Source: a virus
Taxonomy: Duplodnaviria; Caudoviricetes
Strand: one strand, 5' to 3'
DNA length: 48,694 nt
IMG/VR virus record: IMGVR_UViG_3300030523_000008
Coordinates: 1 to 48,694 of that record
A program made the translations under genes and the position numbers. The first letter of the stretch is position 1, and every line of letters starts with the position of its first letter. Of this stretch, positions 7,455 through 40,521 are shown in pieces. Below the pieces are notes generated by a model. That model searched no databases. It saw only the letters and a list, made by a program, of their open reading frames with translations, and was not told where the DNA came from.

Positions 7455-8063
7455 TCAACTCGTCTTCATGAAGGCCCCGACCGCGCGCGGGCCGGTGACG
7501 GATTGGGCGGCGGCCGTGACCGTTCCCTGGAATGTGAGGATGTTGCGGATCGCGTAGGTGCGCCACGACACACGCCGTAGCGTGAAGGCCACGTCGACGC
7601 GCCGGATCCACTGCTCATTCGTTAGTTCGGGCACTGAGGTGATCCGGTCGGTCGACACGAATGCGAGCCCGAGTGCACGCATGGCCTCGCGATTTTGCGC
7701 AATGGCGAGGCCGTCGCGGAGCTGCGTAGCGAGCGCGCGGCATCCGGGACCGTAGAATGAGGCGAGGACCGCGATCTCCTCGGTACGATATTCGCGACTC
7801 AGCCCTTGCCCGCCATCCGCGGATCCATCGTGAACCTCGCTCGGATTGACCTCGGCTCGCTCCTCCGTGATGCCGAACGCGCACCACGACACGGTGCGGG
7901 CGGGTTGGGCCGGAGGAGTTTCCTGCCAGCGCGGACGGACGAGCGTCGGATCGAGGCCCGTGATGCCCACGATGGTGGGCTGGATCTGGTCGTCGAGGTT
8001 GGCGTCGTCGGTTTCGGCGGCTTCGAGTGGCGCGAGGAAACCGCCAGTGGACGAGTCGGTCAC
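7455..8063 (-). CDS. Tail completion/neck protein
   Basis: GTG start coupled to upstream stop; DSSTGGFL..IVGITGL..LVRPRWQ..SFYGP..RDGL.I.QNR..WIRRVD. Confidence 0.8.
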   Translation of the reverse strand: MTDSSTGGFLAPLEAAETDDANLDDQIQPTIVGITGLDPTLVRPRWQETPPAQPARTVSWCAFGITEERAEVNPSEVHDGSADGGQGLSREYRTEEIAVLASFYGPGCRALATQLRDGLAIAQNREAMRALGLAFVSTDRITSVPELTNEQWIRRVDVAFTLRRVSWRTYAIRNILTFQGTVTAAAQSVTGPRAVGAFMKTS

Positions 8064-8458
8064 TCCAGGCTCGTGTGGCGGCAGGTGGCCTTGACGAAGC
8101 CCGCGCCGAAGCGGGTCCAGTCGTCGAGAAGGTCGACCGTGTAGAGTTCGGCGCCGACGGGGGCGGGCCACACGCCGCGCGCCGGCCATATCACCTGGTC
8201 GGCCGTGAAACCCGGTGCGAGATCGGTCAGTCGGAATGTCGTGATGACCTGGATGGCGCCGGAGGTGCGCTCCATGTCGGGCAGACGCTGAAGGTCGAGG
8301 GAGTTGGCCGGCGTCACGACGGCCGAGACGCCGAAGAAGGTCTGGACGGTCGGCGTGTTGCGCCCAAGAATTCCGACCACCATGGCGGTGCGGATCACAT
8401 CGATGGTGTCGGCGAAGTCTTCATCCAGTAAAACGTCTGTCACATCCAGAGTCGGCAT
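8060..8458 (-). CDS. Head-tail joining (head closure) protein
   Basis: MPTLDVTDVLLDEDFAD..DW.RFGAGF; position in neck module. Confidence 0.8.
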   Translation of the reverse strand: MPTLDVTDVLLDEDFADTIDVIRTAMVVGILGRNTPTVQTFFGVSAVVTPANSLDLQRLPDMERTSGAIQVITTFRLTDLAPGFTADQVIWPARGVWPAPVGAELYTVDLLDDWTRFGAGFVKATCRHTSLE

Positions 8459-9209
8459 GCTTCTTCCTCAAAACATGCCCGCGCCACCACCCTTCTACGA
8501 CGATGGTGTCGGGTCGAACTCGCTTATTCTGCTTACCATCTGTTATCCAAATCAGCCCTTTGGTAAGGCCGATCTTACTTGCGCTCATTCTCGCGCGCTG
8601 TTCTATATTATAAGTTTTGCCTCGCTTGGCGGCAGCCATCTTCTCTCGAGTTACCTCTGAGACAGGGCCGCGCAACGCTCTTGCAGATCGCATTCGAGCA
8701 CGCGTTTCCGCTGTATGCTTTCTTCCCACAAGACGTTTATGTCCCTTAGACGCTAAACTCTGACGCGCTCGGGTCTCAGAAGTTAAGGTGTGACAATTGC
8801 CTTTAGCGTGTTGATTTCCGATAAGGTGTGGCTGCGACCTACCCTTCAACACAGCACGCTTCTTTGCGCATGTCTCTTCGGTTTGTTTGTGGCCAGAAGA
8901 TCCTTCACCACCATCAGTCACATTGACTAATGGTCCATCTGGATGCCTGCTTATCGCGCCAATGAAAGCCGCCTCTAATTTGAAAGCTTCTGCTTCCGTC
9001 AAGTTCGCAGCTATCTTGACTTTTGGTATTGATCGTCCTTCTCGCTTGGCTTTTTGCGCGATGTTATGCTTGTAGGGGTTACTTCCATCAAAGGGGCTTA
9101 TCCTTATTCGCCGCCCACACCCCTTTCCCACATAGAAGGGCTGGCCCGTATCTGGTCGAAACAGGACATAGACGTAGAAGTCTGAACGCACTACGTTCTC
9201 GTCAGCCAT
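8421..9209 (-). CDS. GIY-YIG homing endonuclease with NUMOD3 repeats
   Basis: FYVYVLFRP..PFYVGKG, LVNVTDGGEG, repeated H(T/S)xETRxKMS motifs; visibly lower GC. Confidence 0.88.
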   Translation of the reverse strand: MADENVVRSDFYVYVLFRPDTGQPFYVGKGCGRRIRISPFDGSNPYKHNIAQKAKREGRSIPKVKIAANLTEAEAFKLEAAFIGAISRHPDGPLVNVTDGGEGSSGHKQTEETCAKKRAVLKGRSQPHLIGNQHAKGNCHTLTSETRARQSLASKGHKRLVGRKHTAETRARMRSARALRGPVSEVTREKMAAAKRGKTYNIEQRARMSASKIGLTKGLIWITDGKQNKRVRPDTIVVEGWWRGHVLRKKHADSGCDRRFTG

Positions 9210-9300
9210 CTTGCACCTCCATGCAGGCTGGTTAGGGCCGCATGAGCGTTACGAGCGCTTCATGCGGCCTGTTTGTTATAGAGTAGTAGCACAATAGATC
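9192..9300. promoter_or_regulatory. Structured leader, promoter and putative antisense RNA of the GIY-YIG gene
   Basis: TATAAC -10 (- strand), hairpin 9236-9269, CTAACC, RBS in a small hairpin; antisense -10 TACGTT at 9192; same layout at 16637-16725. Confidence 0.65.
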
Positions 9301-9339
9301 AAAGACAAAATGTCGGATACGTCGAGAAGGGGCACGGGG

Positions 9340-9597
9340 TCAGAACCGTTCCTGGCGCTTAGCTCCGCCCTCATTCGAGGGTTGCCGGAAGACTCCAGGG
9401 ATATCGTCGTGGAAGACAAAGTCCCGGATCACAGCTACCTCGGTCGGAGACATACGACCGCTCCGCACAGCATCATCCACGACACGGACCACGGCCCATG
9501 CGAGCGATCCGGGATAGTTGCACGTCCAGGTCACATGACCCGCACTGTCAGTTTCTGGAAGCGTGCTCTGGGGATTGGCGAAAGGGTCCATCGTCAC
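9340..9597 (-). CDS. Hypothetical protein
   Basis: Start overlaps the neck gene stop; no motif recognised. Confidence 0.4.
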   Translation of the reverse strand: MTMDPFANPQSTLPETDSAGHVTWTCNYPGSLAWAVVRVVDDAVRSGRMSPTEVAVIRDFVFHDDIPGVFRQPSNEGGAKRQERF

Positions 9598-10202
9598 TTG
9601 TCCCGGATCACGAAGGTGATGGCGCGCCGGAGCTGCCCGGTATCCACGAGCGGAACCACCAGCCCGGCGCCCTGCAGGATGTCATCGGGCGTACCCTGCG
9701 CCTGAAGATCCAGGTACTGGCGCGCGCGTTTGGATACAGCCGCTTGACTGAGCTTCCCAGAGTCCGGGTTACGGCGACGAGCCCGCGCCTCGATGGTGCG
9801 CTGGCTCAGGGGGACGAACGACCCGTCCGTGATCTTCGCCTGGACGCTGCTCACCGCGACTAGGCCAGCCTTAGCGAAGCCCCGCGCTGCGGCACCAGCA
9901 TCGCCCGTCAGCACCTCGGCTCCGGCCGTCTTCAGCGTGTCCGCGATCTTGTCGCGCACAGCGTCGATGCCGGGAGTGAGGAACGGCCTGGCCGGGATGT
10001 TCCTGTCAGGGTCGCCGAACTCCATCGTGTAGCCGATCACGGCGTTAGATGGTGGCGTGCCTTTCTCGTCTGGCTCCGGCTTGCGCTCGGCCGTGGTGTC
10101 CGGGATGCCGACAAGGAGTCGCTGCCGGACGAGGTCGCGCGTTGCGGCGCCAAGCGAAGCGAACTTGCCTGGCCTGGACGAAACGGTCGACCGGGCCGGC
10201 AT
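9594..10202 (-). CDS. Neck/tail-completion protein
   Basis: LLVGIP..NAVIGYTMEFGDP..NIPARPFL..PLVDTGQLRRAIT. Confidence 0.85.
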   Translation of the reverse strand: MPARSTVSSRPGKFASLGAATRDLVRQRLLVGIPDTTAERKPEPDEKGTPPSNAVIGYTMEFGDPDRNIPARPFLTPGIDAVRDKIADTLKTAGAEVLTGDAGAAARGFAKAGLVAVSSVQAKITDGSFVPLSQRTIEARARRRNPDSGKLSQAAVSKRARQYLDLQAQGTPDDILQGAGLVVPLVDTGQLRRAITFVIRDK

Positions 10203-10549
10203 CAGGTCGACTTGGCCGCGACCGGCGTGACCGTGACGGTTGCAGGCGCGATGGTGATGGGCGCTGCGGGCGCATGGGCCGACGGGGCAGGAACTGGCCG
10301 TTCCACGGGCTGTGCCGCGGGTTGTGTCTCGCGCTCGGCGCGCGCCTTCATCCACGACTCTTTGTCGAGCGCCATCGCGGCCCACTCGTCATCGGTCATC
10401 TCCTCCACCGGCTTGATACCGAGACCGTTTCCATCGGCATGGTTCGCCAGTTCGTCCGGGACCGCGTGGATGCCGCGGAACAACATGATCTCCCGACCCG
10501 AGGATGGGAGCGTCGTCCGCGTGAAGGTGGGGATGTAGAACTCGGTCAT
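10202..10549 (-). CDS. Phage hypothetical protein (STY1053-like)
   Basis: F.GIH.VPDELANH motif, Pro/Ala-rich tail, coupled to neighbours. Confidence 0.65.
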   Translation of the reverse strand: MTEFYIPTFTRTTLPSSGREIMLFRGIHAVPDELANHADGNGLGIKPVEEMTDDEWAAMALDKESWMKARAERETQPAAQPVERPVPAPSAHAPAAPITIAPATVTVTPVAAKST

Positions 10550-10556
10550 GGAAGCC

Positions 10557-10979
10557 TCAGAACCACTGAAAAGGGTAGGAAGGCCGGCGCGAAGGGCCAG
10601 GAATGTAGACCGGGCCGAGCCGAGCCTTCATCATCGCGAGCAGGCGTTGGCCATAAGTGGTGGCGTTCCACGATCCGGCCCCGGCCGTGGCCGTCAATGT
10701 CGTGTCATAGGACTTCGACACTGGTCCGACCGACTTTGACGCCACTGTGCCGACCGCACCGACGCTTGCGATCCCGGCTCGTGCGGCCTGCGCCGACAGA
10801 GCGAGGTTATGGGCGACGAACAGCATCACCGCGAGGGTGTAGGACGTCCCGAAACGGGCCGCATCGAGTTGCGCCTCGCCCAGCGTCTCCCAGAAGGTGA
10901 ACTGGCCGGGAGGAAACGCCGTCGCGTCCGCGAACTCTGGAAAAGCAGCGACGAAGTCCGGTTGAGCAACGACGCCCAT
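10557..10979 (-). CDS. Head-tail adaptor (DUF4054-like)
   Basis: F.AAFPEFAD..LFVAHNL..SKSVGPVSKSYD..WNATTYG. Confidence 0.88.
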   Translation of the reverse strand: MGVVAQPDFVAAFPEFADATAFPPGQFTFWETLGEAQLDAARFGTSYTLAVMLFVAHNLALSAQAARAGIASVGAVGTVASKSVGPVSKSYDTTLTATAGAGSWNATTYGQRLLAMMKARLGPVYIPGPSRRPSYPFQWF

Positions 10980-10981
10980 GT

Positions 10982-11056
10982 TTAAAACCCATGCCCCGGC
11001 GACGGTCGTGAGCGTGATGCGAATGTCGGGAAGGAAAACGTCGCTACAGCGCCCAT
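10982..11056 (-). pseudogene. 24-codon remnant resembling a DUF4054 N-terminus
   Basis: MGAVATFSFPTFASR.. with GAGG RBS, ending 2 nt before the intact adaptor gene. Confidence 0.4.
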
Positions 11057-11067
11057 AGTCGCAAGCC

Positions 11068-11913
11068 TCAATTCATCGCGTTCGCTTCCCAGAAGCACAG
11101 CCCGGCATCGCTAGCGACGGTTGTGTTATTGATGGTCGCGGCCACGAGGATCGGCCCACTCTCGACGGCCGTCGAGTCGACAGATTGCGTCATGCCGGCA
11201 TGAGATGAACCCGAGATCGCACCGTTCGATGTCACGGTCTGAGTGTTCGACCCTGCGGCGCCGCGCTTGAACACGTTGCCTGACACCTGCCAGGACCCGC
11301 CGTTGGTGGTCTGCGCCCCAGTATCGGCCATAAGGACACCGCCCGTACCGATCACCTGTCCGACGACAGCAGTCGCAGGCGTCCACCATAAGCGGACGCG
11401 CTTGCTGTTGGCGGTGGCGGCGTAGTTTCCGTTCGCTACCACCATGAGACCGCGGTTAGTCCCAACGAAGCCGTCGAGCGCGTTGGCGGGCAGCGTGTAG
11501 ATCGCCACCACGTAGTCAGCCCCGATGCCGGCCGGCACCACCATGCCGGCGACGCCGGGGACTTGGCGGTTGATATTGCCCTCTTCGGCGAAGAAGCCGG
11601 AAGACGCGCCGAACTGCGTCACCTCGTTCGGCGGATTGGTGCCACCATTGGCGTAGTCGGCACCGTCGAACACCCATCTGGCATTGCCGGGTGTTGCGTC
11701 GCGGCAAAACCAAAAGCGCAGTGCGCCGGGAGTCGCGTTGAACAGCAGGGACCCGACAACGTAACCCTGCGTCGCGTCCTGGCTCGAACCAGGATCGGAC
11801 GCGGCGGTGAGAGTCGCGATGCCGACCGATTGCAGTACGCCGCCCCCGATCGGGGCTGGCATTTGCATGTCGCGCTCGCCGGTCGCGACGTCGAAAATAC
11901 GGAGGAGACCCAT
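11068..11913 (-). CDS. Putative virion accessory/decoration protein, beta-rich
   Basis: Gly/Ala/Thr-rich 281 aa, GAGG RBS, in head module. Confidence 0.7.
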   Translation of the reverse strand: MGLLRIFDVATGERDMQMPAPIGGGVLQSVGIATLTAASDPGSSQDATQGYVVGSLLFNATPGALRFWFCRDATPGNARWVFDGADYANGGTNPPNEVTQFGASSGFFAEEGNINRQVPGVAGMVVPAGIGADYVVAIYTLPANALDGFVGTNRGLMVVANGNYAATANSKRVRLWWTPATAVVGQVIGTGGVLMADTGAQTTNGGSWQVSGNVFKRGAAGSNTQTVTSNGAISGSSHAGMTQSVDSTAVESGPILVAATINNTTVASDAGLCFWEANAMN

Positions 11914-11921
11914 AACCTACC

Positions 11922-12398
11922 TCACTTCGTGCCCGCGCCGACCGGAGGCTTGATCGGCGCTGTGGCCGCCATGGCGGGCGCCGCCATCTTCGGGGGTTCC
12001 TGACCAGGCGCATCTGCGGACACCGGCTGCGGGCCGGCCTCGCCGAACCGCATGGCTTCCGCCTTCACCGGGCCGGCATCCTTGAGGGTCGAACCCTCGG
12101 AAGCGGATTTCCCCATCTCGCTTGAAACCATGGCCTTCAGTGCCGGCTCGAACCCGAACTCCTGGTCCGGCTCGTCACCCTTCATCTCGGTGACATAACC
12201 GTCCGTGATGAGACTCGGCTTGGTGTCGGCCCATGCCTTGTAGACCTTGGCGTCATCGCCCGAAAACGAGTTGACGCCGGAGGCGATGACGCCCTGCTTC
12301 AACACGGGGCTGTCGCCCGGCTTCTCGGGATCGGGATGCGGTTCGGAGATGCGGATCGCGAGCGGCAGGGTAGACTTGATGCGAAGCGTGTCGGCCAT
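11922..12398 (-). CDS. Phage hypothetical protein
   Basis: GAGGA RBS; weak resemblance to the neighbour 12432-12902. Confidence 0.75.
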   Translation of the reverse strand: MADTLRIKSTLPLAIRISEPHPDPEKPGDSPVLKQGVIASGVNSFSGDDAKVYKAWADTKPSLITDGYVTEMKGDEPDQEFGFEPALKAMVSSEMGKSASEGSTLKDAGPVKAEAMRFGEAGPQPVSADAPGQEPPKMAAPAMAATAPIKPPVGAGTK

Positions 12399-12431
12399 TG
12401 TAGTGTCCTCAAAGCGGCAAGCCGCTTGGTG

Positions 12432-12902
12432 TCAGGTGGCGTCCGCCTTGGTAATCCTGCGAGCGAATTCGGAAGGAGGCCTGTCGATATTGAACGGTTC
12501 CATACCGCTCATGACATCGACCTTCTCTTTCGCGATCCCCTCGACGGTGTCGAGCTTCTCGAACGCGATAAGGAAACCGTTCTTCAACGGCGGGAAATCT
12601 CTGTTCTGCGCAGCCCACTTGTCCCAGAATTCTTTCGGAACGTAGGTCAAGGCATAGCCGCCAATGGTGCCACCATCCACAGCACGGCGTGCGCCGACAA
12701 TGCGCGCGTCGGACACCCGAGCATGATGGCGGGAGAAACCCTTGACGATGTGCGTCTCAGCATCGGGGGATGGATCGAAGACGCGAAGCTTCTCTTCGTG
12801 AACCGCGCCTCCAACGTTAGCGCGAACTACGTGATCGACCTGAAGTTTCAGGGCGATCGGCATGGCAGTCTTGTTGCCCACGACGACCGTCGTTCCTGCC
12901 AT
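12432..12902 (-). CDS. Conserved post-capsid hypothetical protein
   Basis: TVVVGNK..GGYALTYVPKEFWDKW..NGFLIA..SGMEP. Confidence 0.8.
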   Translation of the reverse strand: MAGTTVVVGNKTAMPIALKLQVDHVVRANVGGAVHEEKLRVFDPSPDAETHIVKGFSRHHARVSDARIVGARRAVDGGTIGGYALTYVPKEFWDKWAAQNRDFPPLKNGFLIAFEKLDTVEGIAKEKVDVMSGMEPFNIDRPPSEFARRITKADAT

Positions 12903-12904
12903 CG

Positions 12905-13963
12905 TCAGACTCCGAGCATCTGGGCCGCCGCGAGCGGATACTTGATGATAGCGCCGAACGTGGTGCCAGCGACTTTCTGCTTCGAAGCAGAAAGCTCACG
13001 CACCACCGGGAATTCACGCATTTTCTCGCCGAAGCCGCAGAACCCGACATCGTGCCCATCGTAGCTCTTGGCCCAGAGCTGGATCAGATTACCAGCCGGA
13101 GTCGCGTAGCGCGGGTCGGTGATGACTGTCAGCTTGAACACCTTGTCAAGCATCGCCTGAGCGGTGAGACCAAAAGAGTTGGTCGAACCGAGGGCCAGCG
13201 CAATGATCGGCGGACCGACCATAACTACTTCCTCGGCTGGGTTGACATAGCCCGGCGACTGACTAAGTAGGGTCCCTACCATCGCTTGCACATCCACCGT
13301 GATCTCGTTCGGCGAGGCCACGACGATACCGTTGTTCACCCACTTGGTGCCGCCAGCCGCTTTGGTGGACGGCGTGATGGCAGGCGAGAGGTTCGGATCG
13401 TTGATGATCCCATAGTTCTGCTCACCAGCGATACCGAAGTGATAGCTGTAATCAGCGAACTTATCCATGACCTTCGCGGCAGAGATCTTCATCTCCGACA
13501 CGTAGTTGAGCTTGGCGAGGCCGGCGAGTTCGGTGGCCTTGTCGCCGTACTCGATGATGGTCTGGTACGAGAACGACTGGCGAAAGGCGAAGTCAGTGTT
13601 GACGTTCGTGTTGCCGTCATCATTAAAGTCACCGTAGCCGACGACGCGGCCGGTGTTCTCGATGATCTGGAACTGAGCGGTCTGGGTGAGCCAGTCGCCG
13701 AGCTTTTTCTCTCCCAAGATATCCGCTCCCTTGTTCGGGGTTTGGAGTACTCGGATCACCTCGGGATCAACGTAGATACCGGCGAAGAATGGGATACCGG
13801 CAGACGGCGTCGTGACGAGCGACGGCTGGGCATCGAGTGCCATCATGATCTTCTGCGAGAGGGTGTAGTTCTTGCGGAACTCCTCGGGCATGAAATCTTG
13901 AGCGAGGGGCACGATGCCCCAATCGTCTTTAAGACTGGCGGGAATAGGAGCGTGATAAGACAT
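12905..13963 (-). CDS. Major capsid protein (DUF2184-like)
   Basis: DAQPSLVT..GIP..YVDP..KKLGDW..YGDF..RQSF.YQT..YGIINDPNL..QK..GTTFGAIIKYP. Confidence 0.92.
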   Translation of the reverse strand: MSYHAPIPASLKDDWGIVPLAQDFMPEEFRKNYTLSQKIMMALDAQPSLVTTPSAGIPFFAGIYVDPEVIRVLQTPNKGADILGEKKLGDWLTQTAQFQIIENTGRVVGYGDFNDDGNTNVNTDFAFRQSFSYQTIIEYGDKATELAGLAKLNYVSEMKISAAKVMDKFADYSYHFGIAGEQNYGIINDPNLSPAITPSTKAAGGTKWVNNGIVVASPNEITVDVQAMVGTLLSQSPGYVNPAEEVVMVGPPIIALALGSTNSFGLTAQAMLDKVFKLTVITDPRYATPAGNLIQLWAKSYDGHDVGFCGFGEKMREFPVVRELSASKQKVAGTTFGAIIKYPLAAAQMLGV

Positions 13964-13985
13964 GATGTCAGGAGCCTTTCGCCGC

Positions 13986-14489
13986 TCAGCCCGGCAGGAG
14001 CTTGTTGATGAAGGTCACTTCGCCAGCTGCGCAGGCGAGCTTCGCGTACCACCCCGTCTCGGTGCTGCCCGAAACAGTGGCTCCAGGCGCGGCGAAGCTC
14101 CACGTTCCGTTGGTGTTGTTCGCAAAAGCCTTCATGCCGACCGCAACTGCGGATACGCCGAAGTTCTTGACGATGAAGTCGGCATTATCGAACAGCTCGC
14201 CAACGGCAAAACCGGCCGGCACGCTGTAACCGTAGGTGACGAGATAAGCCTGAATGAGCGCCTGCATGTTGCGATGCAGGATACCCATAGGCAGGCCAGT
14301 GCCGGCGTTCGACAGGATTGAGCCCGTGGCGGTATCGGCCCAGCATGCCAAGCCGATAGTCAGCCCGTTCGATCCGGCCGAGAATCCACCGGGAGGCGCC
14401 AGGACGGAATGGCGCGGGTTGGCGGACGCAAAGTCGCCGGGAAGACCGATTGCGGGGTTGACGTTGACGGAAACGGGGAAGTCGGCCAT
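13986..14489 (-). CDS. Head decoration/cement protein
   Basis: FP.SVN..PA.G.PGDFASANPR; lies between scaffold and capsid. Confidence 0.82.
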   Translation of the reverse strand: MADFPVSVNVNPAIGLPGDFASANPRHSVLAPPGGFSAGSNGLTIGLACWADTATGSILSNAGTGLPMGILHRNMQALIQAYLVTYGYSVPAGFAVGELFDNADFIVKNFGVSAVAVGMKAFANNTNGTWSFAAPGATVSGSTETGWYAKLACAAGEVTFINKLLPG

Positions 14490-14496
14490 GTCGCCC

Positions 14497-15918
14497 TCAG
14501 TTCTTCAGACGGCTGGAGTTCGGGAACGCCTTGGTGTCGTAGGTGACGCCTGTGGGCGCAGCGTCCTGCGCGAAGCGACGCGGCTCGGACTTCACTTGGC
14601 TGGCGTGCCCATGGACCTCGACAAGGTCGGCAAGAGCATCGGGGTGCTTGCCCTCATGCTTGACCTTGAGGATATCAAGCGCGGCCCGATGCACGGCTTC
14701 GGCGCTGTCACACGCCATGGCGATCTCACCGACGTACGGGCGGACGAAACGCTCAGCCTCGCGGATAGCGTTCATCTCGACGCGGACGTCGGCGGCGGCA
14801 TCCTTGCGGGTCTGGACCATGGCCGCGTCCATGGCAGTCTTGCTGACCATGTCGGGCTTGCCCTTGTCCTGCGCGCTCGGGGCGGCAAGCGTGCCGCGCT
14901 TGCGACGATCCTCGGCGTCGCCCGAGCCCAGCATGTCCTTCAGCTTCGCCATGTCCTCGTCGGAAATTTTGCCGTCGAGGAACGACAGGATAGCTTCCGC
15001 ATCAGGCGCGTCGGTACCATCGGGCTTGACGGTCGGATCGGGGTCTGTCACCGCCGCGGCGATGTTGTCCGACTCGTTTTTCATCACCTCGGCGATCTCT
15101 TCGACGATGCCCTGGACGTCGGCCTGATCCATATCGGCATCGGCAGCGAGCTTCGGCCGTACCGCGGCGTCGAACGCCTTGGCGATGACCGGCGCCTTGG
15201 CCAGGATGGTCTTCGACGTCACGCCCTTCAGCATGGGCAGGAGGTCGATCTTGGCGTCCTGCGCAAGCCGGGGCTTCGCATAGGCCATGAGGGCGCCACG
15301 GGCCACGTCGGCCGTGCGGGATAGGACAGCCGACTTAGGCATGGGGAACACCTCTTTCAGGGATCGGGGTTTGGCGTCGTGGACCAGGACGTCCGGACCG
15401 GCGCGGCCTTCTTTGACCAGCGCAACATGATTGGCCCTCAGGTTCCGCATAACGCCGTCGTATTTTTCACCTTCAGGTGAAGTCCCGGAAGTCATATCCG
15501 GGTCGTAAGCGTAACCGCACGACAGTTGCTGCCGTTCTTCGGACTCGATCCCATCAATGGCTTGCTTAGTCCAGATGTTTAGCCCGGCCATCAAGAAGGG
15601 AGGCTTCCATACCGGATTAGCTACATTACCAGCTACCTCTTCGTGAGGATGGTCGGTGGCATGGACCGGTTTATGGATGATGAGGAGAGGCTTGCCATCG
15701 AATGTATCGGCTGCCTTTTCAAGCTCACCAGGGTCTCGGTATAGCCGATAGATCTTGTCTGATGCGAGCCCGAGCTTCTGCCAGCCGGGGATCTCGCGCC
15801 CGAGATAGCTGTTCACGCATGCCTTGCTGATGGGCGTCAGGCTGACGTGAAGGTGACCGGTGTCCTCATCCTTGGTGCGAACGGAGGCGCGGTCGAGCGC
15901 GAGGCGGAGTTCGGTCAT
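14497..15918 (-). CDS. Prohead protease/scaffold (DUF2213-like)
   Basis: DRASVR..ISKACV..YLGREIP..QLSCGY.YD..NHVALV.EGRAGPDV; AMD/AQD repeats. Confidence 0.92.
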   Translation of the reverse strand: MTELRLALDRASVRTKDEDTGHLHVSLTPISKACVNSYLGREIPGWQKLGLASDKIYRLYRDPGELEKAADTFDGKPLLIIHKPVHATDHPHEEVAGNVANPVWKPPFLMAGLNIWTKQAIDGIESEERQQLSCGYAYDPDMTSGTSPEGEKYDGVMRNLRANHVALVKEGRAGPDVLVHDAKPRSLKEVFPMPKSAVLSRTADVARGALMAYAKPRLAQDAKIDLLPMLKGVTSKTILAKAPVIAKAFDAAVRPKLAADADMDQADVQGIVEEIAEVMKNESDNIAAAVTDPDPTVKPDGTDAPDAEAILSFLDGKISDEDMAKLKDMLGSGDAEDRRKRGTLAAPSAQDKGKPDMVSKTAMDAAMVQTRKDAAADVRVEMNAIREAERFVRPYVGEIAMACDSAEAVHRAALDILKVKHEGKHPDALADLVEVHGHASQVKSEPRRFAQDAAPTGVTYDTKAFPNSSRLKN

Positions 15919-15932
15919 CGGCTCAACGCCTC

Positions 15933-15976
15933 AAAAAGTGCGGGCTCACGCGGCGGAGAGGGACCGCGCGCCCGCT
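15933..15976 (-). terminator. Terminator-like hairpin upstream of the scaffold gene
   Basis: GCGGGC..GCCCGC stem followed by ACTTTTT on - strand. Confidence 0.45.
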
Positions 15977-16027
15977 GCCGGTGTTTTCGCCCACCGCCGG
16001 CCGGGGCGAGCCGTTCGTTAGATCAGG

Positions 16028-16654
16028 CTAAAGCAGCCGGCCATTGCTTTGCGCCCACTCTATCGGGTCACGTGCGTGCTTGCTGTGGTTGCAAGGAGGA
16101 CAGAGTAATTGAAGATTGGATCGATCGTTAGAACCACCTCGCGCCAGAGGCATGATATGGTCGACGTCGTATCGCTTCCGAATATCAGATCTGCAGTTCA
16201 CACATCGACCACGCTGAATGGCCAATAGTTTCCTGATGTCATCTTTGGTATGGACACCTGAAGCGTTCCGTCTCCGAGCCTTGTGAGCGCGAGCGCGACA
16301 AAGAGCATCTTCTGGATTCAGCCGCCCACGCTCACGGTTTCTAGCGTCGCATACCTCTTTGTTTTCCCAATAGTAAAACTTTGACTTTGCGGCAAGCGAT
16401 CCTCGATTACGAGCTTTCCACCTTGCGTCCAAGATCCGACGTTTGGCCAGAAATTCTTCGCGAGTCATACTTGTACGAGGACTGACACCTCGCGCTCGGC
16501 GCTTTCTTTCTAGACCTTCCCGGCTGCACTCACAACAAGATCCCCCACTGGTCTGGCGTTGAGCAATATGCCCGCGCCTGCAAGCTGTGCCAGTAAAGTA
16601 CCGCCTCAACCCATTTGCCTTGGCATCGGCACGAGTTATGATCTTATCAGCCAT
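16028..16654 (-). CDS. HNH homing endonuclease
   Basis: YFTGTACRRGH N-domain; RCVNC..VDHIMPLARGGSN..NLQLLCPPCN.SK. Confidence 0.9.
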   Translation of the reverse strand: MADKIITRADAKANGLRRYFTGTACRRGHIAQRQTSGGSCCECSREGLERKRRARGVSPRTSMTREEFLAKRRILDARWKARNRGSLAAKSKFYYWENKEVCDARNRERGRLNPEDALCRARAHKARRRNASGVHTKDDIRKLLAIQRGRCVNCRSDIRKRYDVDHIMPLARGGSNDRSNLQLLCPPCNHSKHARDPIEWAQSNGRLL

Positions 16655-16725
16655 GCTGCGCTCCTACGCGGCTGGTTAGGGCCGGCAGGAGTGTTGACGC
16701 ACCCTGTCGGCCCGTCAGTTATACC
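16637..16725. promoter_or_regulatory. Structured leader, promoter and putative antisense RNA of the HNH gene
   Basis: TGGTATAAC (- strand), hairpin 16679-16713, CTAACC, RBS hairpin; antisense -10 TATGAT at 16637. Confidence 0.65.
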
Positions 16726-16743
16726 AGACTATTTGATCTAGAC

Positions 16744-17511
16744 CTACTCAAGATTGATGAGTGGCTCGGCATAACATCTGCAATTCCAGATACATCCGGG
16801 CAAGTTCCTATGTCCTGGATCACACTCTGGCGGGTCATCCCATCGAAACGTAAGGCCATCCAGCTTTCGGTGGCTTTCCCGGACATCGCCGTCCCGACTG
16901 GTTCTCCAGATGAAATGCGTAGAACCGACATGCACGGCCCTGGCCTGCGTCAAGGCCGTGGCGGCACGCCCGACCTCGGTGCGGGCGATCAGATCAGCGC
17001 GGGACCGCGTAACTTCGCCCGTCCGTAAGATCTCGGCCGCCAATTCCGGCGCCCGCATCCCCTTGGCCAGGCCCTCGGTCGCTATCCGATGCACCCGCTC
17101 GGCCGCCTCGCGAGGAAGCGAGGTGATCAACTCTACCTGATCCTGCATCAGCCGATGCATGACGGTGCCGGTCGGAGCGGTCTCGATCTCACGATGGACT
17201 GCACGTCCGATCTCGGCCGACAGCTTCCGCCACGACCGCGCGTCGGACTGTGCCACTTCCGTCACGACACGATCGGCCTCAGCCTCAGCCCACGGCCGAA
17301 TAGCCTCGCCGTAGCGCAGCATGGCGGCCTGCATCGTAGCTTGCCCCGCCGCCGACGCAGGGTTGAAGCCTCGTGCGATGTCATCGACGTGGCGCGCGAT
17401 CTTACGAAGCTGCGCGGTGTACCGTTTCACGAGCTTCTTTGCCCGGATAAAGGCCGAGCGAAGAGACGCCCTATCCTGGGCAATGCCAAGCGCCGCGAGG
17501 TTGCGACCCAT
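16744..17511 (-). CDS. Minor head protein (Mu gpF/SPP1 gp7-like)
   Basis: RADLIARTEV..WRTSRDGDVRESH..PGCIWNCRCYAEP. Confidence 0.92.
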   Translation of the reverse strand: MGRNLAALGIAQDRASLRSAFIRAKKLVKRYTAQLRKIARHVDDIARGFNPASAAGQATMQAAMLRYGEAIRPWAEAEADRVVTEVAQSDARSWRKLSAEIGRAVHREIETAPTGTVMHRLMQDQVELITSLPREAAERVHRIATEGLAKGMRAPELAAEILRTGEVTRSRADLIARTEVGRAATALTQARAVHVGSTHFIWRTSRDGDVRESHRKLDGLTFRWDDPPECDPGHRNLPGCIWNCRCYAEPLINLE

Positions 17512-21170: not shown

Positions 21171-21998
21171 CTAATTCTGCGCAAGCGAATCGATACTTAC
21201 ATCTACATCCGCACCACCGAACAGAGCGTCGATGATGATCTTGACGCAATCGCCCTTGGCCCTTTTGACCCGGCCGACGAAGCCGGCGAAGGGGCCGTCA
21301 ACCACGCGAACCGAATCGCCCGGCGAAAACGTGACCTCGGGCTTCTCCTTGGCTTCGTCGAACTCGCCAGCCGCTTCCGCCGCCATGATGGCATGAAGTT
21401 TGAGGGTACGGCGAATGGGTTGCGGCGTACCGGCATACCCCACAATATCGACAACTCCATCTCGACTTCGGATGGTGCGCCAGTCGGGCGTCATCGACGG
21501 CAGACCAAGAAACGCATAGCCGGTACAGAGCGGAACCTCGACACGACGTTTCACCTGCTTACCGTTCATAACTCGCTTGCCGAACCGCCAATATGCCCGC
21601 ATCGGAACGTAGCAGTGGTAGCCAAGTGCCTCGATCGCAGTCTTTGCCTTAACTTCCATCGAAGGTGCCGTCTGCGCTGCGAACCACAGTGCCACGGGCT
21701 GTTCGTCAACGACACGACGCGTCCCGACGCGGTAGGCGCCTTCGACGATCGGGACCGAGATCAATCCGGCCTCGGCCATGGCGGAGGCGATGGCCTCGGA
21801 CCTGCCCTCATGGACAGCCTGCTTGCGTTGCTCGGCCGCGAGCGCCTTCAATGCCTGCTCACCGTCCGTGATAGGCTCCCGCGCGCCATCCCTTACCGCC
21901 CGGCCGATCCGCTCGGCGAAGGCACCGTCTGGCATGCTGTGATGATTGAGCCTGTGTGGGGCCGACCTGTCGTCTTCGTCTGGAATTGAAGAGATCAT
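21171..21998 (-). CDS. NusG-family (NGN+KOW) late antiterminator
   Basis: WFAAQTAP..CYVP..PL..GYAF; PGDSVRVVDGPFAGF KOW motif; Q-like position before terS. Confidence 0.88.
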   Translation of the reverse strand: MISSIPDEDDRSAPHRLNHHSMPDGAFAERIGRAVRDGAREPITDGEQALKALAAEQRKQAVHEGRSEAIASAMAEAGLISVPIVEGAYRVGTRRVVDEQPVALWFAAQTAPSMEVKAKTAIEALGYHCYVPMRAYWRFGKRVMNGKQVKRRVEVPLCTGYAFLGLPSMTPDWRTIRSRDGVVDIVGYAGTPQPIRRTLKLHAIMAAEAAGEFDEAKEKPEVTFSPGDSVRVVDGPFAGFVGRVKRAKGDCVKIIIDALFGGADVDVSIDSLAQN

Positions 21999-36434: not shown

Positions 36435-36734
36435 ATGCCCCGCGCAATCACCCTAACCGCCTCGCTGGCCCGCGCCTCCGGCCTAGACGCCGGCAACATG
36501 CAGATGCGCAAGGCGGGCCGCACCAAGTGGAACCTCGCCGATCGCAACCGCGCGGCCGAAGTCACGAACCGCCTCATGCTCTCGGTGCCGTTCGAACAGG
36601 GTGGCCTGAGCGGTCTCGAATTCACGCATACGATGCTGGATCACCTCGGGGTCACGGCCGCGCAAGTCATCGCCTCCGGTAACAGTCTCTTCGGCCACAA
36701 CGGCGGCCCGGCGCTCATGAACGAGGCCGCCTGA
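36435..36734 (+). CDS. Hypothetical protein, first gene of the + strand early operon
   Basis: GGGAAG RBS; C-terminal GHNGGP motif. Confidence 0.7.
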   Translation: MPRAITLTASLARASGLDAGNMQMRKAGRTKWNLADRNRAAEVTNRLMLSVPFEQGGLSGLEFTHTMLDHLGVTAAQVIASGNSLFGHNGGPALMNEAA

Positions 36735-37228
36735 TGCCCCGCACCGCAGCCGAGACCGAGACTTTCACCGCCGCAGAGCTTGCCGCGGTCGGCGCCGCCA
36801 TGGATGCATCGATAGCCCATGGCCTAGAGGCCGCAGCTGCGAATCAAGCCAAGTCTGAGCGGAAGCAATTCAGGATCAACATCGCTGCGATGCGCACTGT
36901 TCTCTCCAGGCGCTTCCCGAAAGCATTCCTGAGCAAGGGATCAGTTAAGCGCCCTTTGGCGCTCGGCATTGACAAAGCCATTATCGAAGCATGGCCAGAT
37001 GTTGATCCGGTCCTCTTGAAAGAAGCCCTTTGGGACTACACGCGAGGGATGAAATATCTCGTGTCCTGCATCGAAGGAGCCGAACGCGTCGGGCTTGATG
37101 GTTCGCCGGCCGGTTTGATCACTGCGGATCAGGCCGGCTTCGCCAAAGGATTGCTGAAAAAGCTCACAAAGAAATTTGGCGGCACGCCGAAGCGCAACAA
37201 CGCCGGCCCGGCGATGGAGGCCGCGTAA
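36734..37228 (+). CDS. ProQ/FinO-domain RNA-binding protein
   Basis: L..RFPKAF..RPLALGI..L.EAL..YTR...YL...EGAERVGLDG.P.G.IT. Confidence 0.88.
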   Translation: MPRTAAETETFTAAELAAVGAAMDASIAHGLEAAAANQAKSERKQFRINIAAMRTVLSRRFPKAFLSKGSVKRPLALGIDKAIIEAWPDVDPVLLKEALWDYTRGMKYLVSCIEGAERVGLDGSPAGLITADQAGFAKGLLKKLTKKFGGTPKRNNAGPAMEAA

Positions 37229-38383: not shown

Positions 38384-38829
38384 TGGGCGACCTGACCTTG
38401 GACGAGAAAATCAACTTTGCTGAGATGCACGCTCGCGAGTTGGAAGCTGAGAAGCATTTCTTCGATGCCGCTCAGCCGCATCATCCGCTCGGCTTCTCCA
38501 TCGGCTACCGGAACCCATGGCATTGGGACATCATCGCGCGCGAGTGTCCCGGCAAGGCCTCGGCATGGCGTCGCGCGCACCCTAACGGCTCCACAACCGC
38601 GCAGGACGGCGAGCGTGCCCGAGCATTCCGCATTCGAGGTGAACCCGGCAACGTGGTGGTGTTCGACGAACGGTGGAACCCGCATCGGCCGTATCCTCGC
38701 GAGACAACGAAGTTTCGCAGTGTCATGGCCGCCATGGTCTGGATTTGCGAGGAGCTCATGCAGGAACCCGCACCCAAGCTCTCCACCACCGACCCCCGCG
38801 CGGTCGCACAGGGAGGGTCGAGCCGATGA
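38383..38829 (+). CDS. Hypothetical protein
   Basis: TGATG coupling. Confidence 0.7.
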   Translation: MGDLTLDEKINFAEMHARELEAEKHFFDAAQPHHPLGFSIGYRNPWHWDIIARECPGKASAWRRAHPNGSTTAQDGERARAFRIRGEPGNVVVFDERWNPHRPYPRETTKFRSVMAAMVWICEELMQEPAPKLSTTDPRAVAQGGSSR

Positions 38830-39125
38830 AAATACGAACCGTAGAAGTTCGCGAAGGCGAGAACATGGGGCCGGTTGATTGGTCTCATCCCGCGGCAAAG
38901 GACATGTCGGGGATTTGGCGCGAAGTCGAAAAGCAGCCAGAGGGCTTCTTGTTCAACGGTCGGCAGATAGTCTCTATCTGCATGTATGATGGGTGGCCGT
39001 ATTGGACACCAACGCCAGCGGTCTGCTTCATCGGACCTATGAACTCCTCCGAATGGAATTTCTTCAATAGCTACGGCGTGAATTCCCGTAGCATAACAAG
39101 ACGCACGGTCGCACAGGGAGGGTCG
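38801..39125 (+). repeat. 20-bp direct repeat CGGTCGCACAGGGAGGGTCG (38801, 39106)
   Basis: Exact copies, each containing the RBS of the next gene. Confidence 0.9.
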
Positions 39126-39140: not shown

Positions 39141-39370
39141 TGCAGCCGCCTAACCCACCGCCCTCGACGACCGTCATCCTGGAGATCCCCCGGCACGAGG
39201 CCGAGGAGATCAGCGAAGGGTTTGCGGACCTGCTGTGCTGGTGCTGCGGCTTCGTCGCCGCGCTCCCGGAAGAGCTCTCACGACACCCTCTGAACTGGGA
39301 AGTCGCGCGTGAGATCCGTCTCAAACTCATGGCCGCCCTCGGCAATAAAGGAAGGGAGATCCCGTTTTGA
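39131..39370 (+). CDS. Hypothetical protein
   Basis: ATG after second repeat; ends EIPF. Confidence 0.65.
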
Positions 39371-40521
39371 GCCTCACCACGCACGAGCCCCGCGACGTCG
39401 TGGCGCAACCCGAGCGCATGCCGGTCCGTCGATCATTTACTCAGCAGGAAATCGACACGGCTGTTGACGGATATGTCTCGGGGCTGACGCTTGAAGCCGC
39501 AGCCCACCTTGTAGGCATGGGGCGCTCCGAAACACTGCGGTACCATCTCGTCAAGAGAGGTATACCGCGCCGTTCAGAGCATTCTTACCGCCCAAACCCG
39601 TCCGAATATTTTGAGGCGAACGTTCAGCCTGAACCCAATTCAGGCTGCTGGATTTGGATCGGGCATTGGGATCCTGCTGGTTATGGCATCGCCACCAGCG
39701 GACGCAAAATCATGAAGGCTCACCGCTTCTCATGGTCGATCAACAGAGGCGACATCGGGCAGTCCAAGGTTTGCCACAAGTGCGATGTCCGGTGTTGCGT
39801 CAACCCTGACCACCTCTTCCTCGGCACGCAGGCCGAGAATGTCGCCGACATGGTCGCCAAGGGTAGGCAACGCGCGCCGCAAGGGAGAGCGGCGATGATC
39901 CAGGGGACAGCCGATTGGTTCGCCGCGCGCTGCGGCAAGATCACGGCATCGCGGGTCGGCGAGGCCACCAAGCGCACGCAGAAAGGTGCATGGGGTGCGG
40001 AGCGCCGCACCGTCATGACCGAGTTGGTAGCCGAGCGCCTGACCGGGCAGGCCGCGCAGCACTTCGTTTCGGCTGCCATGCGCTGGGGAACCGAGCAGCA
40101 GGCCGCGGCCGCGCAGGCCTACACGTTCCTGACGGGGCGCGAGGTCAGCGACGTCGGCCTCATCAACCATCCGCGCATCAAGGATAGCGGGGCGAGTCCC
40201 GACGGTTTGATCGGCGACGATGGCGGGATCGAGATAAAATGCCCGATCACGGAAAACCACATCGCGACCTTGCTAGCGAGTGAAGTCCCAGCCGAGCACC
40301 TTCCGCAAATCCACTGGGGCATCGCTTGCAGCGGCCGGGCCTATTGGGATTTCGTGTCCTATGACCCGCGCATGCCGGCGCACCTCCAATGCTTCATCGC
40401 CCGCGTCGAGCGGGACGACGTCGCGATCGCGGCCTTGGAGACTGACGTCGTCACGTTCCTCGACGAGCTTGGGGCCAAGGTCGAGCGGCTTCACACCCTT
40501 TACGATCGGGTGGCAGCGTGA
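39367..40521 (+). CDS. HNH endonuclease fused in frame to a YqaJ/lambda-exonuclease domain (internal start 39895)
   Basis: SGCWIW.G..AHRFSW..CHKCD..CVNPDHL..GT..ENV.DM; then [26 protein letters not shown]. Confidence 0.88.

Follow-up and report, generated by a model that had tools for sequence, protein, structure and literature searches.

Two phage nuclease genes share a leader predicted to encode an antisense RNA of the SymR and RepX kind

Introduction

Why should two unrelated nuclease genes of one virus begin with the same leader? The IMG/VR virus record IMGVR_UViG_3300030523_000008, analyzed here over its whole length of 48,694 nucleotides (the window; the complete 48.7-kb record, GC 62.7%), encodes a terminase, portal, head and sheath proteins, a NusG-type antiterminator, an integrase and a tRNA, a gene content that indicates a temperate myovirus. 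Inside its head operon, and in the same direction as the operon, lie a GIY-YIG-type endonuclease gene with NUMOD3 repeats (cargo A; 8421-9209, minus strand, 262 aa) and an HNH endonuclease gene (cargo B; 16028-16654, minus strand, 208 aa; PF01844, E 7e-13). Each is headed by a leader of about 90 bp, here called copy A or copy B of the cassette. In the best reading of the data the cassette is a portable translational silencer and not an addiction toxin-antitoxin pair: an antisense RNA, predicted to be made by the host polymerase, most probably covers the ribosome-binding site (RBS) and the AUG and holds translation down.

Results

The elements of the shared leader listed in the original prediction, which was made from the window alone, were located at both loci. 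The identical 15-mer GGCTGGTTAGGGCCG was present at 9226 and 16670, TATAAC on the minus strand at 9275-9280 and 16718-16723, a leader hairpin of 34-35 nt at 9236-9269 and 16679-16713, and ATGGCTGA from 9209 and 16654, with the RBS in the loop of a short stem at each locus. The antisense hexamers TACGTT (9192-9197) and TATGAT (16637-16642; both plus strand) indeed stood at an identical offset, 13 from the A of the ATG, but offsets 13-18 correspond to codons 5-6 and not to codons 5-7 as had been proposed. The 15-mer alone is within chance, as the window contains 22 repeated 15-mers, overlapping and palindromic ones included. The whole unit of about 90 bp is beyond chance: 66 of 94 aligned positions were identical between the loci, the alignment of leader A with leader B scored 89 while the best of 1983 random windows scored 49, and the 60-nt flanks on either side of both leaders gave background scores only. 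No third copy was found in the window, where the next-best full-length model match reached 8.8 bits, and BLASTN of leader A against cultured phages returned only 6 short matches at chance level.

The first query pattern, taken from the window, consisted of CCCTAACCA, GGAG and ATGGCTG and matched 118 IMG/VR viral loci of about 130 estimated. These were reduced to 102 unique and 83 dereplicated loci, 77 of which carried the upstream hairpin, an element that is no part of the query pattern. With looser patterns the matches were 121 viral loci, of about 370 estimated, and 120 GTDB loci, of about 580 estimated; after dereplication, 56 of 72 GTDB loci had the hairpin. The named hosts of the carriers were mostly proteobacteria. 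Among 38 phage contigs of at least 30 kb, picked for holding one copy, 15 had at least two full matches (two to five), and in one more the second match was a partial reverse hairpin. The cassette is a widespread family.

The relation of this family to known antisense RNAs was examined with a covariance model (R1) of 80 phage rows from which the window copies were excluded. Copies B and A scored 61.9 and 58.8 bits, and RepX and SymR, both matched at full length, 46.2 and 43.4 bits; on the 4.6-Mb K-12 chromosome SymR was the sole match at E ≤ 0.01. E-values of R1, and of the stricter model R2 (52 first-pattern rows; see Discussion), are rough. A geometry like that of symE/SymR had been noted in the original prediction; the score that a model of phage copies gives to SymR goes beyond likeness, and on sequence grounds the cassette is homologous to E. 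coli symE/SymR and to IncQ repA/RepX.

SymR/symE (RF01809) has the layout of the cassette base for base and shares with it the 3' hairpin with a GUGUUG-GCAC-type loop, the UGAUUAG linker, the RBS hairpin and ATGACTGA, together with a -10 at offset 14 and an RNA start at nt 6; it differs in that the cargo in the window is HNH or GIY-YIG in a phage head operon and not SymE (PF08845). The hexamer at offset 14 in E. coli symE is the one mutated by Kawano et al. (PMC1891008), whose silent mutation of this symR -10 abolished SymR. The same paper describes SymR as stable and acting in trans, and SymE as a labile partner and Lon target. RepX, the R1162 countertranscript (RF00043), has CTAACCA, the RBS hairpin, ATGGCT and a -10 at offset 14 (AGCCTA in repA), but controls a plasmid replication protein, RepA. 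It is an exceptionally stable RNA that overlaps the RBS and start of repA, and a GUUA spacer separates its two stem-loops (PMC8136791), as it does in the cassette. RepX/Plasmid_R1162, which the original prediction had not named, is a known member as close as SymR. At locus L389 (2820-2894), RF00043 matched the repA mRNA strand, opposite to the RepX RNA, and RF01811 (PtaRNA1) weakly matched the RepX strand (28.9 bits, E 0.1).

Other antisense RNAs were more distant. P22 sar/ant (RF00262) also has an antisense RNA over the ant RBS, a promoter in the first codons and an end at a hairpin with a similar loop, but its -10 is at offset 7 and the CTAACCA/ATGGCT helix is missing. With only partial matches of 7-8 bits (R2 7.3), and none at E ≤ 0.01 in the genome, sar works alike but its membership was unsupported. 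FinP/traJ (RF00107) and PtaRNA1 (RF01811) are likewise two-hairpin antisense RNAs over a 5' end. R2 matched FinP on pSLT at full length and in the correct orientation (12.9 bits, E 0.009), which is a hint; R1 gave no match on pSLT, and no copy of PtaRNA1 was found in 20 genomes. The Rfam scan suggested in the original prediction gave no family that reached its threshold on the leaders. Over the window, only a tRNA was called at the gathering threshold; RF01809 (symR, gathering 61) had no window match at gathering or at E ≤ 10, RF00043 (Plasmid_R1162, upstream of IncQ repA, gathering 55) reached 19.1 bits on copy B with no match listed for copy A, and RF00262 (sar) did not match the window copies in sequence and structure. 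Rfam contains no clan for symR, Plasmid_R1162, PtaRNA1 or sar.

The antisense promoter was then counted over the 77 dereplicated hairpin-bearing members. TAnnnT was present on the opposite strand at offset 13/14 in 39 of the 77 and in 0-2 at any other offset; control ORFs had it in 4 of 63 over offsets 10-18. The -10 'TA' was found at offset 13/14 (codons 5-7) in 64 members, and as two reading frames are involved, it is not explained by codon use. Of these 64, 14 had TTG at a spacer of 17 nt, compared with 0-4 at other spacers. Neither TA nor TTG is part of the query pattern. The conservation of the TA and the peak of TTG agree with the antisense promoter put forward in the original prediction, which by these counts is under selection.

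The predicted antisense promoter of copy A (9169-9197, plus strand), which is based on sequence and family conservation, lies within the coding sequence and consists of TAGACG (9169-9174), 17 nt and TACGTT. That of copy B (16615-16642, plus strand), called by the promoter scan and consistent with family conservation, consists of TTGCCT, 16 nt and TATGAT. It was the sole promoter-like site called in 8200-17000; shuffles gave 2.4, so this call is non-significant by itself. On the mRNA strand, TATAAC at 9275-9280 (minus strand) is a candidate -10 of nuclease mRNA A that overlaps the antisense U-rich tail and is less well supported than the antisense promoter, and TATAAC after TG-n (extended -10-like) at 16718-16723 (minus strand) is a candidate mRNA promoter of copy B. 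The 3' hairpin was rejected as an mRNA-strand terminator, because the 8 nt that follow it contain a median of 1 U on that strand and 4 on the antisense strand. SOS control was rejected as well: a LexA-type box (CTG-N10-CAG) stood upstream of only 2 of 56 bacterial copies, and a box of the alphaproteobacterial type upstream of none; the scan covered the bacterial and not the viral copies, and no LexA-type box was evident in the window.

The strand to which the structure belongs was assessed in 124 viral members by counting internal oppositions flanked by Watson-Crick pairs. In the large hairpin, A-C mismatches of the mRNA, which become G·U in the antisense sequence, numbered 122, against 24 of the G-T type; in the RBS hairpin the numbers were 56 and 5. 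The antisense fold was of lower energy than the sense fold in 74 of 77 members, an excess that is partly base composition, as shuffles gave a 2:1 ratio with a looser count. CTAA[C/T]CA pairs with ATG[G/A]CT, so that the conserved words are the arms of a helix, AGCCA/UGGUU, with a fixed G·U. The variable pair of this helix covaries (C-G 104, T-A 10, C-A 6, T-G 2; Fisher p 3e-9, a value that ignores kinship, as related sequences are not independent), and its predicted pair probability exceeded 0.5 in 115 of the 124 antisense folds but in only 44 of the 124 sense folds. When a hand-drawn structure was tested on a MAFFT alignment, 89% of cells paired (slid controls, 30-46%), and two-sided changes were present in 17 of 23 pairs. 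In 83 of the 124, all or part of the RBS lay in the loop. According to these fold models the conserved structure belongs to the antisense strand, which favors a predicted RNA of 70-77 nt with two stem-loops, complementary to the RBS and start codon.

In the window, predicted antisense RNA A is about 74 nt long (9204-9277, plus strand; ends inferred from SymR). Its 5' helix, AGCCA (9204-9208) with UGGUU (9229-9233), would close a hairpin with the anti-RBS in the loop (9212-9225), and the 3' part is the hairpin at 9236-9269 followed by a U-rich tail. Predicted RNA B, of about 72 nt (16649-16720, plus strand), folds as RNA A does, with the RBS hairpin at 16655-16672 and the 3' hairpin at 16679-16713. 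When RNAs of 72-77 nt starting at 9204 and 16649 were folded, the predicted structures resembled that of SymR. The cofold gain was about -80 kcal/mol for the cognate pairs (-78 and -82) but only -12 and -16 kcal/mol for the cross pairs, so copies A and B are predicted to act separately.

The genes behind the cassette were scanned in the 77 viral members, 74 of which had an ORF of at least 30 aa; 3 of the 74 scored below 30 bits and were dropped, leaving 71 that scored at least 37 bits. Nuclease-type cargo was found in 44 of the 71, of which 30 were assigned by Pfam and 13 by PHROGs, and 1 was identical to the window GIY-YIG; only 31 Pfam-blank viral proteins were run against PHROGs, and many ORFs were cut at 102 aa. 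The other viral cargo comprised two Rha/ANT antirepressors, RadC, an HTH protein, an acyltransferase and unknowns. Among 48 bacterial ORFs there were 8 SymE and one each of Rep, antirepressor, HNH and resolvase, and Pfam gave no hit for the other 36. The presence of ATGGCTG in the query biases this sample. The portability across unrelated genes that had been proposed from GIY-YIG and HNH holds more widely, as the cassette also stands ahead of antirepressor, Rep, RadC, resolvase and HTH genes. Because it supplies the RBS, the start and the first codons, new cargo would join by in-frame fusion behind it.

Several individual loci were inspected. One Thalassomonas genome had seven pattern matches (L276, L290, L306, L307, L319, L335 and L348), and the one match that was scanned heads a SymE gene. 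The cassette precedes only a short peptide (17-44 aa) in phage Ssp-JY40 (L390, 1501-1589) and in L002, L008 and L032. In phage Ssp-JY40 the stop of the peptide overlaps the next start, the next ORF is antirepressor-like by eye, and control is possibly exerted via translational coupling. In PP438430.1 (L147, 1291-2109) the HNH gene as annotated starts early enough to read through the cassette; translation probably begins at the ATG directly 3' of the RBS hairpin, near 1462.

Both nuclease genes of the window have the marks of insertions. Their GC3 was 0.47 (cargo A) and 0.48 (cargo B), compared with 0.71-0.91 in four neighbor genes. Cargo A, in which Pfam recognized NUMOD3, matched PHROG 314 'homing endonuclease' (E 3e-12) and was 34% identical to a LEM-3-like GIY-YIG protein. 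At its 3' end this gene overlaps the beginning of the head gene at 8060-8458, whose working start (MPTLDVTDVL; 8429-8458, minus strand, starting at 8458) is recoded within the GIY-YIG 3' end. A relic of the first ten codons of this head gene (VPLLDVSDIL) is located upstream of the insertion (9306-9335, minus strand); the head-gene N-terminus is thus duplicated on both sides of the insert, whose boundary at copy A is about 25 nt upstream of TATAAC. In L132 the site is empty, and the head gene directly follows its upstream neighbor. Cargo B lies between the MuF head morphogenesis gene and the head protease gene. The window HNH had no match in any of 24 other phages whose MuF gene is related, and in 8 of those 24 (several near-identical) the protease gene came after MuF at a distance of at most about 55 nt. 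A homologue of the window HNH was found with a cassette in phage Ssp-JY40 (52 bits), a cultured phage that carries two copies, and without one in Rhizobium phage 16-3. The empty sites and the head-gene relic indicate that cassette and nuclease entered together. Both genes combine a nuclease domain with an insertion missing from related alleles, as free-standing homing endonucleases do, and their role in homing is putative. Another prophage had its own cassette (48 bits; L131, 11441-11534) in the same MuF-protease junction, ahead of an unrelated short ORF.

Discussion

The silencer would work as follows. From a promoter inside the first codons of each nuclease gene, the host sigma-70 polymerase would transcribe an antisense RNA of about 72-77 nt that starts at about nt 6 of the ORF (AGCCAU). 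It would fold into a 5' stem-loop exposing CUCC in the loop, a 3' hairpin and a U-rich tail, and pairing over the ribosome site and start codon would repress translation of the nuclease. Nuclease synthesis would thereby be kept low in the lysogen and early in infection, until rising late read-through of the head operon out-titrated the antisense RNA and gave a late nuclease burst suited to homing. Copies A and B would act independently.

Several points weigh against this reading. Three of the 80 R1 rows came from a pattern written once symE was known, and for this reason R2 was built; it gave lower scores than R1 (SymR 35.0 and RepX 35.3 bits, both full length, filters off) and lost SymR in the filtered whole-chromosome search. 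Promoter A (TAGACG/TACGTT) is a poor match to the consensus and weaker than promoter B, and since the TA is missing from 13 of the 77 members, there may be silent copies. For the mRNA promoter, a signal was counted in 42 of 67, compared with 7-8 in other windows, but this count is confounded by the A-richness of the antisense tail. RNAalifold on the sense-strand MAFFT alignment returned no consensus structure, and the alignment of the arms with a hand-drawn structure was used instead; that structure was drawn from the same sequences on which it was tested. Finally, the timing of late release is something we infer only.

The same leader could be explained without any antisense RNA, if hairpins on the mRNA limited ribosome access, as in T4 I-TevI and segB and Aeh1 mobE, and the antisense hexamer were vestigial. 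In T-even phages it is established that hairpins control the translation of homing endonucleases (PMC2988022), and both window hairpins fold on the mRNA strand as well (-37 kcal/mol). The T-even hairpins, which like the proposed RNA restrain translation of phage homing endonucleases, act in cis and are relieved by a late promoter, and the excerpted text of that source describes no dedicated antisense RNA gene. Such a cis-acting leader is improbable for the cassette, in which the RBS tends to lie in the loop and not in the stem, the hairpin mismatches favor the antisense strand, the antisense -10 and -35 are conserved, and the homology is to two proven antisense RNAs. A structure of single-stranded DNA that mobilizes the insert, with G·T pairing in DNA and not in RNA behind the strand asymmetry, is the least likely of the explanations considered. 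The cassette does mark the left end of both inserts and is multi-copy in the 15 contigs described above, and the G·T bias cannot separate DNA from RNA. Nevertheless, a DNA structure has no need for a promoter signature at fixed spacing, SymR and RepX are demonstrated RNAs, and the boundary at copy A lies upstream of TATAAC and not at the hairpin.

The original prediction had regarded the cassette as a device for toxic nucleases resembling a type I toxin-antitoxin system. In an addiction system of this type, cells that lost the prophage would be killed, since the stable message of the nuclease would outlast an unstable antisense RNA. The large share of nucleases among the viral cargo, and SymE behind 8 of the 48 bacterial copies scanned, fit such a system. 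However, SymR is the stable partner and SymE the one targeted by Lon (PMC1891008), which is the reverse of addiction, and the exceptionally stable RepX controls a replication protein (PMC8136791), so that the same cassette regulates IncQ repA. Moreover, the cassette heads non-nuclease genes (antirepressors, Rep, resolvase, RadC), and the inserts lie in an operon that a lysogen presumably keeps unexpressed. A stable SymR, a labile SymE and much cargo that is not toxin make addiction quite unlikely, and this part of the original prediction was not supported; the translational silencer is the preferred reading.

Host protection from free-standing phage nucleases is known mainly in T-even phages, by cis hairpins and late promoters. 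If the silencer is real, an antisense-RNA route of nuclease restraint would be common in temperate phages; the 'antitoxin' SymR and the plasmid copy-number RNA RepX, now filed apart, would fall into one family; and SymR would be recast as general dosage control and not as a dedicated antitoxin. The hundreds of silencer/target pairs predicted to occur naturally and to act independently may also serve as parts. In the open literature no paper was found that links SymR with RepX or with ptaRNA1, or that assigns an RNA of this type to phage nucleases; the likeness could be mentioned in the first reports on ptaRNA1, R1162 and sar or in the SymR review of 2012, all of which lay outside this search. 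What appears to be new, judged by sequence, is the phage nuclease cargo and the SymR-RepX link; cis-antisense control as a kind is already known.

A broader proposal is tentative, and we give it slightly less than even weight. SymR, RepX, and perhaps FinP and PtaRNA1, might be the few named members of a large unrecognized superfamily of portable antisense 'start cassettes'. Selfish genes carried by the phages and plasmids of proteobacteria (nucleases of the HNH, GIY-YIG and EndoVII-like types, antirepressors, Rep, SymE) would gain such a cassette by in-frame fusion, and its diverged loops would keep copies in the same genome independent. The RNA of a resident prophage would then silence the cognate nuclease of an incoming phage, which would amount to RNA-based immunity to homing.

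Additional observations

RepX binds FinO. The window encodes a ProQ/FinO-family protein (PF04352, E 3e-19) at 36734-37228 (plus strand), and this protein could bind the RNAs described here. As a conserved partner of the cassette it was rejected: ProQ/FinO was found in 0 of 38 other cassette-bearing contigs and, for comparison, in 1 of 23 further contigs. One such protein is also encoded by L140, a related prophage that has no cassette.

A terminator-like hairpin followed by TTTTT was observed at 15933-15975 (minus strand), 3' of the HNH gene and directly before the protease RBS. It was missing from the four empty MuF-protease junctions compared, and a simple terminator scan did not call it. 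Given this hairpin and T5 between the HNH and head protease genes, the HNH insert appears moron-like. The NusG-type antiterminator, whose gene is at 21171-21998, might read through it.

In the early region, a word of about 20 nt around CCCTCCCTGTGCGACC is repeated at 38801-38822 and 39106-39125, near the divergence point, and the two copies are possible operators. The ORF at 39367-40521 (plus strand) had no cassette match to model R1; it encodes an HNH_3 domain followed by a YqaJ-like exonuclease and may be a third nuclease-like insert or a fusion.

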